64,000 nucleotides of DNA from Escherichia coli (GTDB taxonomy: Bacteria; Pseudomonadota; Gammaproteobacteria; Enterobacterales; Enterobacteriaceae). The first letter of the stretch is position 1. Every line of letters starts with the position of its first letter. This document shows, piece by piece, positions 5,487-5,828 of the stretch. Both the position numbers and the translations under genes were made by a program. The notes beneath the pieces were generated by a model. That model did no database searches. It was not told the DNA's origin and worked only from the letters and a program-made list of their open reading frames with translations. Location of the stretch: assembly GCF_001677475.2 (NCBI RefSeq), contig NZ_CP015229.1. One strand, 5' to 3'.

Positions 5487-5828
5487 CGCTGCTCCTGTTA
5501 TTTGTCGTTCGCCTTACAAAATGAAGAAACAGAATCTCCACTTTCATTTTGAAAGCAAACTAACACAGCGAAAGCGGCAAAAAGCGTGATGCATGTCGAA
5601 TATCATCAAAATAACTTACAAAAAATAACTTAATTTGTTTTTAACTTTGCAAGTGAAACCAATGACACCTCTGCATAAATATGAATAAATTCATTTATTT
5701 TTCAATTCATTAAGCTATTTTCGTTGCGATTTTTGGCCCATGATTTTCTTTTCGAATTGTCGATTTTTATTGAAGGATAACTTTCAAAGAAAAATACAAG
5801 GGGCTATAGTGTTACGCATTAAAGGCCA
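5487..5828. promoter_or_regulatory. Divergent AT-rich control region between aldolase-ABC-kinase operon and regulator-kinase operon
   Basis: 342 bp non-coding, AT-rich; CRP-like site 5652..5667, palindrome ATGAAT-AA-ATTCAT 5681..5694, direct repeat AAAATAACTTA x2 at 5612..5640. Confidence 0.5.

Follow-up and report, generated by a model that had tools for sequence, protein, structure and literature searches.

The 342-bp spacer at positions 5487-5828 of the Escherichia coli DNA stretch examined here (64,000 nucleotides, hereafter the window) is the divergent tagY-tagR intergenic control region of a D-tagatose utilization island. At a probability of roughly 70%, its two promoters, Ptag in front of tagYABCDE and Preg in front of tagRK, are controlled by CRP at 5585-5600 and by the DeoR-family repressor TagR, which would bind two operators, O1 and O2, and three weaker sites, O3, Om and O4. 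The regulatory region is real and has already been described in the literature, and the proposed multi-operator layout would extend a known type of system only modestly. To this the present analysis adds conservation, spacing and matrix scores, and it reveals that a short direct repeat in the spacer coincides with a deeply conserved element that has so far gone unannotated in the literature.

The locus is recognized by its genes and borders. Minus-strand open reading frames (ORFs) match, in NCBIfam, a tagatose-bisphosphate-type class II aldolase, an ABC sugar transporter and a tagatose-kinase-like PfkB protein, and those on the plus strand match a DeoR/GlpR regulator followed by a second PfkB kinase. 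The regulator gene directly adjoins the control region, and TagR orthologues carry Pfam domains PF08220 (N-terminal HTH_DeoR) and PF00455 (C-terminal DeoRC sugar-phosphate sensor). As in the published locus, the island comprises eight genes bordered by accC and yhdT, with a near-identical tagR-tagY spacer; in E. coli GF131 it likewise sits between accC and yhdT (yhdT-panF-prmA side). A megablast search of 5426 complete E. coli genomes returns the same 2.1 kb from 1422 of them, at no more than 97.9% identity. The description of the region as AT-rich and placed between divergent operons, made in a first-pass annotation of the window, is confirmed (32.7% G+C vs 49.4% for the window).

The D-tagatose island of E. 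coli Nissle 1917 was described by Ha et al. 2022 (PMC9720028), and its 341-bp tagR-tagY spacer (Rint) was studied by Park et al. 2025 (PMC12226905). In the latter work, differential RNA sequencing (dRNA-seq) mapped one transcription start to 64 nt before the tagY ATG and another to 11 nt before that of tagR, and found no further start sites. The authors predicted the promoter elements (TAGTTT at -10 and TTTTTG at -35 for Ptag; TTCAAA at -35 and TATAGT at -10 for Preg), a CRP site (TTCGA-N6-TCACG) and the operators tagO1 and tagO2; O3, Om, O4, a spacing rule, looping, autoregulation and integration host factor (IHF) do not figure in PMC12226905. In their Nissle reporter, excess TagR represses, tagatose induces and glucose delays induction (PMC12226905), and on tagatose tagYAB expression rises more than 1000-fold and that of tagRK about 2-fold (PMC9720028). 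Two start sites, TagR-dependent repression, induction by tagatose and repression by glucose are thus established by published experiment. The divergent, catabolite-repressed and substrate-induced control by a DeoR-family repressor that the first-pass annotation had expected is correct, and it was already shown in Nissle (PMC12226905, PMC9720028).

The Nissle and window spacers (341 vs 342 bp) are about 94% identical. The two loci share their gene order, both promoters, the CRP site and the cores of tagO1 and tagO2, while the window differs at a few operator-flank bases and in a hypervariable centre. Since their alignment is free of indels from the tagY ATG to about 5763, the Ptag start included, the published elements can be placed on the window (Table 1).

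For comparison, a genome collection was scanned with TagR, which retrieved divergent tagY-tagR loci of the E. coli E69 allele, Superficieibacter, two Enterobacter species and Trabulsiella, as well as loci of Klebsiella spallanzanii and Izhakiella with other upstream genes. Further loci, from Serratia aquatilis, Chania, Yersinia, Sodalis, Budvicia, a K. pneumoniae lineage, Tatumella and some other lineages, were obtained through a protein search and from contigs; five additional E. coli alleles and Nissle were also included. Block identities given below are means of six other lineages relative to the window, and chance expectations come from 5000 dinucleotide-preserving shuffles of the 342-bp region.

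The CRP site predicted in PMC12226905 scores 12.8 bits on our approximate CRP matrix and is the top match of the region. This score was reached in 2.7% of shuffles and is attained at only 4 positions in 64 kb. The same aligned position is the top match in 9 of 10 orthologous regions. In the alignment of 18 lineages, GTGA of the left half and the C of the right half are invariant, and the N6 spacer is free, as is expected of a real CRP dimer site, where half-sites are kept and the spacer varies. The distance from the CRP site to O1 is constant (42.5-44.5 bp). An adequate score at -42.5, combined with a weak -35 element and a 15-bp spacer, suggests that Ptag is a CRP-dependent promoter of class II-like geometry.

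The operator model, a 17-bp palindrome with 7-bp arms and a 3-bp spacer (7-3-7; ACTTTCA-N3-TGAAAGT), was read from distant orthologues and turned into a symmetric matrix. Since circularity had to be avoided, the matrix was retrained without any Escherichia sequence and then run over the whole window. Six sites scored at least 9 bits in 64 kb, four of them within the 342-bp region; O1 received 21.0 bits, O4 11.3, O3 10.9, O2 10.0 and Om 7.1. Thus, operator-like sequences of one type recur here: O1 lies over the Ptag start, O2 is centred at +31 (16 of its 17 columns are invariant across 7 lineages), and O3, Om and O4 follow the same pattern. Their layout is conserved as O2 -(22-30 bp)- O1 -(42.5-44.5)- CRP -(28.5-29.5)- O3 -(23-32)- Om.

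O3 is where the direct repeat AAAATAACTTA lies. The repeat had been placed at 5612..5640, a few bases off; it occurs twice, at 5608-5618 and 5622-5632, with a 14-bp period, one copy overlapping the left flank and left half of O3 and the other its spacer and right half. Direct repeats of 11 bp without a mismatch, both copies inside 30 bp, arose in 2.5% of shuffles, and of the three motifs noticed at first pass this is the sole one that is both beyond chance and conserved in other genera. The suggestion that it is a candidate operator is therefore supported by its overlap with O3. In every lineage that has O3 (about 16, from Escherichia to Yersinia, Sodalis, Budvicia and Tatumella, with loci facing phosphotransferase system (PTS) operons included), the centres of O3 and O1 are 73-74 bp apart (74 in the window), and in Budvicia O3 is a near-perfect palindrome (21.3 bits). 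The repeat itself, in the form TAACTT-N8-TAACTTAA, recurs in Trabulsiella and lineage L023, CTTWCAAA is found twice outside O1/O2 against 0.07 expected, and the 12-mer ATAACTTWCAAA of the O3 block recurs over the Preg -35 element.

The Preg -35 element is covered by O4. In the block around O4, 15 of 18 columns are invariant, and wherever TATAGT can be aligned, the O4 centre lies 17-18 bp upstream of the first T of this Preg -10 element, which is itself invariant across the compared lineages. In Yersiniaceae O4 is a near-perfect palindrome (ACTTTCAATTAGAAAGT, 21 bits). The weak Om matches the Yersiniaceae O1, AACTTTCCAAGTGAAACC, at 17 of 18 positions, and both Superficieibacter (18.1 bits) and K. 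spallanzanii (15.1 bits) have a strong site at the corresponding position.

The control circuit that these elements suggest would work as follows, the protein at each site and the looping being assigned from sequence. Ptag, which has a poor -35 element, would rely on CRP-cAMP. TagR would shut it at the strong O1 over the start, helped by O2 in the 5′ untranslated region (UTR), and tagatose or a phosphorylated derivative would free Ptag of TagR. Preg would allow near-constitutive tagRK expression, with O4 over its -35 element providing mild autoregulation of tagR. O3 would be an auxiliary operator. Since it is located seven helical turns upstream of O1, the CRP site and the core promoter lie between the two operators, and a TagR oligomer could bridge O1 and O3 and trap both, as LacI does with lac O1-O3. 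A fuller version of this scheme, to which we give about even odds, has a conserved array of TagR sites, five or six in number and paired at a spacing of about 29 bp (O2/O1, O3/Om and O5/O4, where O5 is described below), an O1-O3 loop of seven turns enclosing the CRP site and core promoter, autoregulation through O4, possibly a central IHF-type bend, and reuse of the module in front of ABC operons (Escherichia, Serratia, Yersinia) and PTS operons (K. pneumoniae, Tatumella, Izhakiella).

Several points weigh against this picture. In the window O3, O4 and Om are weak (7-11 bits) and have degenerate right halves. O3 is absent in Enterobacter BIGb0383 and lineage L022, although only there. The constant O1-O3 distance could in part reflect promoter geometry and a factor other than TagR at O3, e.g., the C-terminal domain of the RNA polymerase alpha subunit (alpha-CTD). 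The CRP matrix, which draws on 18 classical sites, is approximate, 17 of these 18 training sites scoring 11-18 bits on it. The start-site positions are those of the Nissle dRNA-seq transferred to the window by alignment, and the authors label their own model a working hypothesis (PMC12226905). Preg activity changes only about 2-fold (PMC9720028), and any autoregulation must therefore be mild. Finally, a matrix made from the published tagO1/tagO2 19-mers missed O3 and O4, giving both about 0 bits in the window, and the 7-3-7 palindromic model was needed to find them.

The last point also speaks for the view that the published minimal model is complete, i.e., that only tagO1, tagO2 and CRP at 5585-5600 act, that about 5601-5775 is non-functional spacer, and that the repeat and the Preg block owe their conservation to something other than TagR. 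Only tagO1 and tagO2 are named in PMC12226905, and short natural variants lack most of the spacer. We nevertheless consider this view unlikely. O3 and O4 are conserved like promoter elements (identities of 0.88 and 0.94), their distances are fixed across about 18 lineages, in Budvicia and Yersiniaceae they come close to being perfect copies of the O1 palindrome, and the matrix built from non-Escherichia sequences retrieves them.

We are similarly doubtful that the AT-rich centre (about 5633-5775, palindrome included) plays an architectural or silencing role, either by nucleating H-NS on horizontally acquired DNA or through an IHF bend at 5700-5712 that would join O3/Om to O5/O4. The G+C content is low (33% vs 49% for the window), and 6 lineages retain TTTCAA-N4-TTR with variable N4 bases, the element lying no more than about 3 bp from the point halfway between O3 and O4. 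IHF has a role at the ula system. That DeoR-family system is a precedent for divergent, autoregulated control (PMC5934670). However, an IHF match alone is at chance, occurring in 70% of shuffles, and the six lineages are not independent because they share ancestry and have few indels. The centre (143 bp, 5633-5775) is hypervariable in E. coli, with identities of 80-90% for 620 genomes and of 90-95% for 617, compared with 95-99% for the flanking genes; the stretch is dispensable in Trabulsiella, and no extra start sites were found (PMC12226905). The central 143 bp were also considered as a repeated or mobile element, and this was rejected, the segment being single-copy in every E. coli genome that has it. 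The exact centre allele of the window occurs in no complete E. coli genome (best match, 98.1% over 421 bp), and core genes near the locus are at best 98.7% identical to those of complete E. coli genomes. Extra promoter-like hexamers retrieved inside the spacer by a promoter scan were rejected, since no start site maps there. An Rfam scan of 5300-6000 returned nothing real, its one snoRNA match having E = 0.2.

Less probable still is that the repeat block at 5608-5632 is a docking site for alpha-CTD (UP-like) or a site of some other factor rather than TagR. The block is A/T-rich and keeps a constant 28.5-29.5 bp to the CRP centre, and the position taken by alpha-CTD at class II CRP promoters fits a block at -58..-82. 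Its conserved core, ACTT(A/T)CA, is, however, no plain A-tract; it contains C/G and equals the O1/O2 half-site. Full palindromic operators are found at O3 in Budvicia, K. pneumoniae and Tatumella, and ATAACTTWCAAA also lies over the Preg -35 element, where the alpha-CTD idea cannot apply. Because the operator half-site is conserved and ATAACTTWCAAA recurs in this way, we rank alpha-CTD below TagR at O3. A Cra (FruR) half-site, considered as a possible reading of AGTGAAAC, was rejected as well: this sequence equals the right half of a TagR-type operator in Yersiniaceae and is not conserved at that position beyond Escherichia.

The two remaining motifs of the first-pass annotation, an AGTGA-AACCAA-TGACA sequence proposed to bind CRP-cAMP and a perfect palindrome proposed to bind the DeoR regulator, are indeed present in the sequence. 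The former has one mismatch per half-site to TGTGA-N6-TCACA (8 of 10 consensus positions), a match specific to the window allele; Nissle has 7 of 10. With up to two mismatches, such matches arose in 14.8% of shuffles. The sequence scores -0.8 bits on the CRP matrix (rank 22 of 321 in the region), a value equalled or exceeded at 1211 positions of the window, and its right half lacks the C that pairs with G7. Its centre lies at -109.5 of Ptag and -158.5 of Preg, and thus not at a productive distance from a start (-41.5, -61.5 or further positions in steps of one helical turn). Both promoters therefore map elsewhere, an outcome that the first-pass annotation had itself named as refuting its proposal. 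Among E. coli alleles, the right half reads TGACA (in the window only), TAACA, TGGAA or TGAAA, the latter being the B2 form found also in Nissle, where catabolite repression was shown; outside Escherichia it is not conserved. Trabulsiella and Enterobacter BIGb0383, whose spacers measure just 221-244 bp, have no counterpart of the stretch containing both motifs, the deletion in Trabulsiella removing roughly 120 bp, palindrome included. We conclude that the CRP-like motif is a chance match composed of the right half of Om and hypervariable DNA. Perfect palindromes with 6-bp arms and 0-6 bp spacers appeared in 74.5% of shuffles. The arms of this one are kept in the main E. coli allele, with only the centre varying (AA/TA/AT), but the E69 allele no longer has an intact copy, other genera lack it altogether, and it does not resemble the conserved operator motif; it lies in dispensable AT-rich spacer. 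Control by CRP at the first motif and TagR at the palindrome is thus highly improbable, as both are at chance level, no better conserved than neutral spacer (0.27 and 0.31) and centred more than 100 bp from both mapped starts.

Other known systems resemble the tag region. The best curated family match of TagR is AgaR of E. coli K-12 (105.6 bits, 31% identical), a DeoR-family repressor whose regulon has several operators, CRP-dependent promoters and an autoregulated agaR gene. The match falls under the 260-bit equivalog cut-off, which makes TagR a paralogue rather than AgaR itself. In the agaR-kbaZ region, which AgaR controls, and upstream of agaS there are many CTTTCGTTT / AAACGAAAG repeats, whose TTTC(G/A)TTTT core is common to the tag operators, a resemblance also remarked upon in PMC12226905. 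In contrast, substrate and operon content differ, and the aga regions carry runs of direct TTTC repeats where tag has the 7-3-7 palindrome.

The lac O1-O3 loop shares with tag a strong operator at the start, a weak one upstream of the activator site, CRP between them and a distance of whole helical turns (92 bp in lac; 73-74 bp, or about seven turns, in tag), so that in both the operators flank the promoter and the activator site. Unlike lac, the tag repressor belongs to the DeoR family and not to LacI, CRP is placed in class II-like and not class I fashion, and looping in tag is suggested by spacing alone. UlaR (divergent ulaG-ulaABCDEF) and DeoR (three deo operators) are, like TagR, DeoR-family repressors responsive to sugar phosphates and acting on several operators at divergent or tandem promoters. 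The ula and deo systems feature CRP co-activation and cooperative or looped binding. Their operator sequences differ from those of tag, in which one of the two divergent arms is the gene of the regulator. Binding of UlaR upstream of the gene that encodes it has also been described (PMC5934670).

For trimming or tuning the promoter, the elements that matter would be O1, O2, CRP at -42.5, O3 at -72 and O4 over the tagR -35 element, and about 120 bp of the region appear dispensable for a promoter cassette. The layout may explain the more than 1000-fold chromosomal repression. The tagatose locus also marks B2-phylogroup E. coli. For genome scanning, CRP-like matches and short palindromes in AT-rich spacers occur at chance level, and phylogenetic footprinting sorts them quickly.

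Table 1. Features of the tagY-tagR control region and adjoining genes. Positions are those of the window; identity is the block mean defined in the text.
Feature	Position	Strand	Identity	Remarks
tagY, tagatose-bisphosphate aldolase	4650..5486	-		First gene of tagYABCDE; NCBIfam GatY-type aldolase subfamily, 500.7 bits; same annotation in E. coli GF131
O2 (tagO2), CCTTACAAAATGAAGAA	5512..5528	.		tagY 5′ UTR, +23..+39 of Ptag (centre +31); 10.0 bits
Published tagO2	5513-5531	.		Mapped from Nissle alignment
tagO2 block			0.94	
Published tagO1	over 5537-5555	.		Mapped from Nissle alignment
O1 (tagO1), ACTTTCA-TTT-TGAAAGC	5540..5556	.		Over Ptag start, -6..+11; 21.0 bits, best in 64 kb
tagO1 block			0.97	
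Ptag transcription start	about 5550	-		Nissle dRNA-seq and gap-free alignment
Ptag -10 hexamer, TAGTTT	5557..5562	-		Published element and window sequence
Ptag -35 hexamer, TTTTTG	5578..5583	-		Poor match, 15-bp spacer; published element; inside invariant block AAAAGCGTGA
-35 and left CRP half-site, AAAAGCGTGA			0.93	
Predicted CRP site, core CGTGA-TGCATG-TCGAA at 5585-5600	5582..5603	.		Centre about -42.5 of Ptag; predicted in PMC12226905
CRP N6 spacer			0.28	
CRP right half			0.73	
Direct repeat AAAATAACTTA, two copies, 14-bp period	5608..5632	+		-58..-82 of Ptag
Direct-repeat copy 1			0.88	
Direct-repeat copy 2			0.71	
O3, ACTTACA-AAA-AATAACT	5614..5630	.		Putative auxiliary TagR operator; -64..-80 of Ptag, centre -72; 10.9 bits
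Om, ACTTTGC-AAG-TGAAACC	5644..5660	.		Weak, operator-like; 7.1-9.3 bits; right half supplies AGTGA of CRP-like motif
CRP-like motif (first-pass annotation)	5652..5667	.	0.27	Judged non-functional as CRP site
Palindrome ATGAAT-AA-ATTCAT (first-pass annotation)	5681..5694	.	0.31	Lineage-specific; no functional support
Spacer segment	5695-5775		0.32	
IHF-like core TTTCAA-TTCA-TTA	5700..5712	+		One mismatch to WATCAANNNNTTR; weak lead only; 6 Enterobacteriaceae lineages keep TTTCAA and TTR
O4, ACTTTCA-AAG-AAAAATA	5780..5796	.		Putative tagR autoregulatory operator; over Preg -35, -38..-22; 11.3 bits
Preg block, ATAACTTTCAAAGAAAAA			0.94	
Preg: -35 TTCAAA 5783-5788, 16-bp spacer, -10 TATAGT 5805-5810	5783..5810	+		Promoter scan and published; start about 5818
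Preg -10			1.00	
tagR, DeoR/GlpR-family repressor	5829..6659	+		NCBIfam DeoR-family matches; repressor function published for Nissle

About 30 bp upstream of O4, the sequence TTTTCGA-ATT-GTCGATT (5750-5766; O5) resembles a decayed operator. At the aligned position, E. coli E69 has TTTTCAAAATGTAGATA (10.8-12.2 bits), and two Enterobacter lineages have ATTTCAAAA(C/T)G. A metagenome pattern scan for operator pairs other than those of the E. coli Nissle type retrieved one contig only, with the E69-type E. coli allele. Outside the region, the sole strong match to the TagR matrix, at 29109, is a chance match in a 16S rRNA gene; the 5′ end of this gene lies at about 29040-29135 (minus strand), and the window thus includes an rrn operon.

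The K. pneumoniae, Tatumella and Izhakiella lineages encode TagR orthologues 56-57% identical to TagR and have a PTS operon in place of tagY and the ABC transporter. They keep the O1-CRP-O3-Om layout and the O4/TATAGT promoter, facing a PfkB kinase and the PTS operon. The regulator and control region are thus a module reused there with a different uptake route. Two lineages of the K. spallanzanii type lack tagY; their conserved control region, beginning with O2, lies about 200 bp upstream of the substrate-binding-protein gene, and O3 is duplicated, with two ATAACTTACAAAA copies 31 bp apart.

Unlike that of Nissle, tagY of the window carries an in-frame 18-bp (6-codon) deletion at about 4999/5000, which removes VQRTQI (residues 164-169 of the 284-aa protein) directly before a conserved segment. 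The homologues examined all have 284 residues, and the loss of six may impair the aldolase of the window strain. Conservation does not extend to the annotated tagR ATG at 5829: in most orthologues the ATG comes one codon later, and Superficieibacter has none. An in-frame GTG at 5844 is invariant in 11 of 11 tagR sequences, and the 271-aa GTG-start TagR is the commoner gene call (a protein cluster of 837 members). The longest ORF for the second kinase, tagK, spans 6616-7626, and its first 44 nt are shared with the end of tagR; its homologue in RefSeq starts about 75 nt further on (311 aa).

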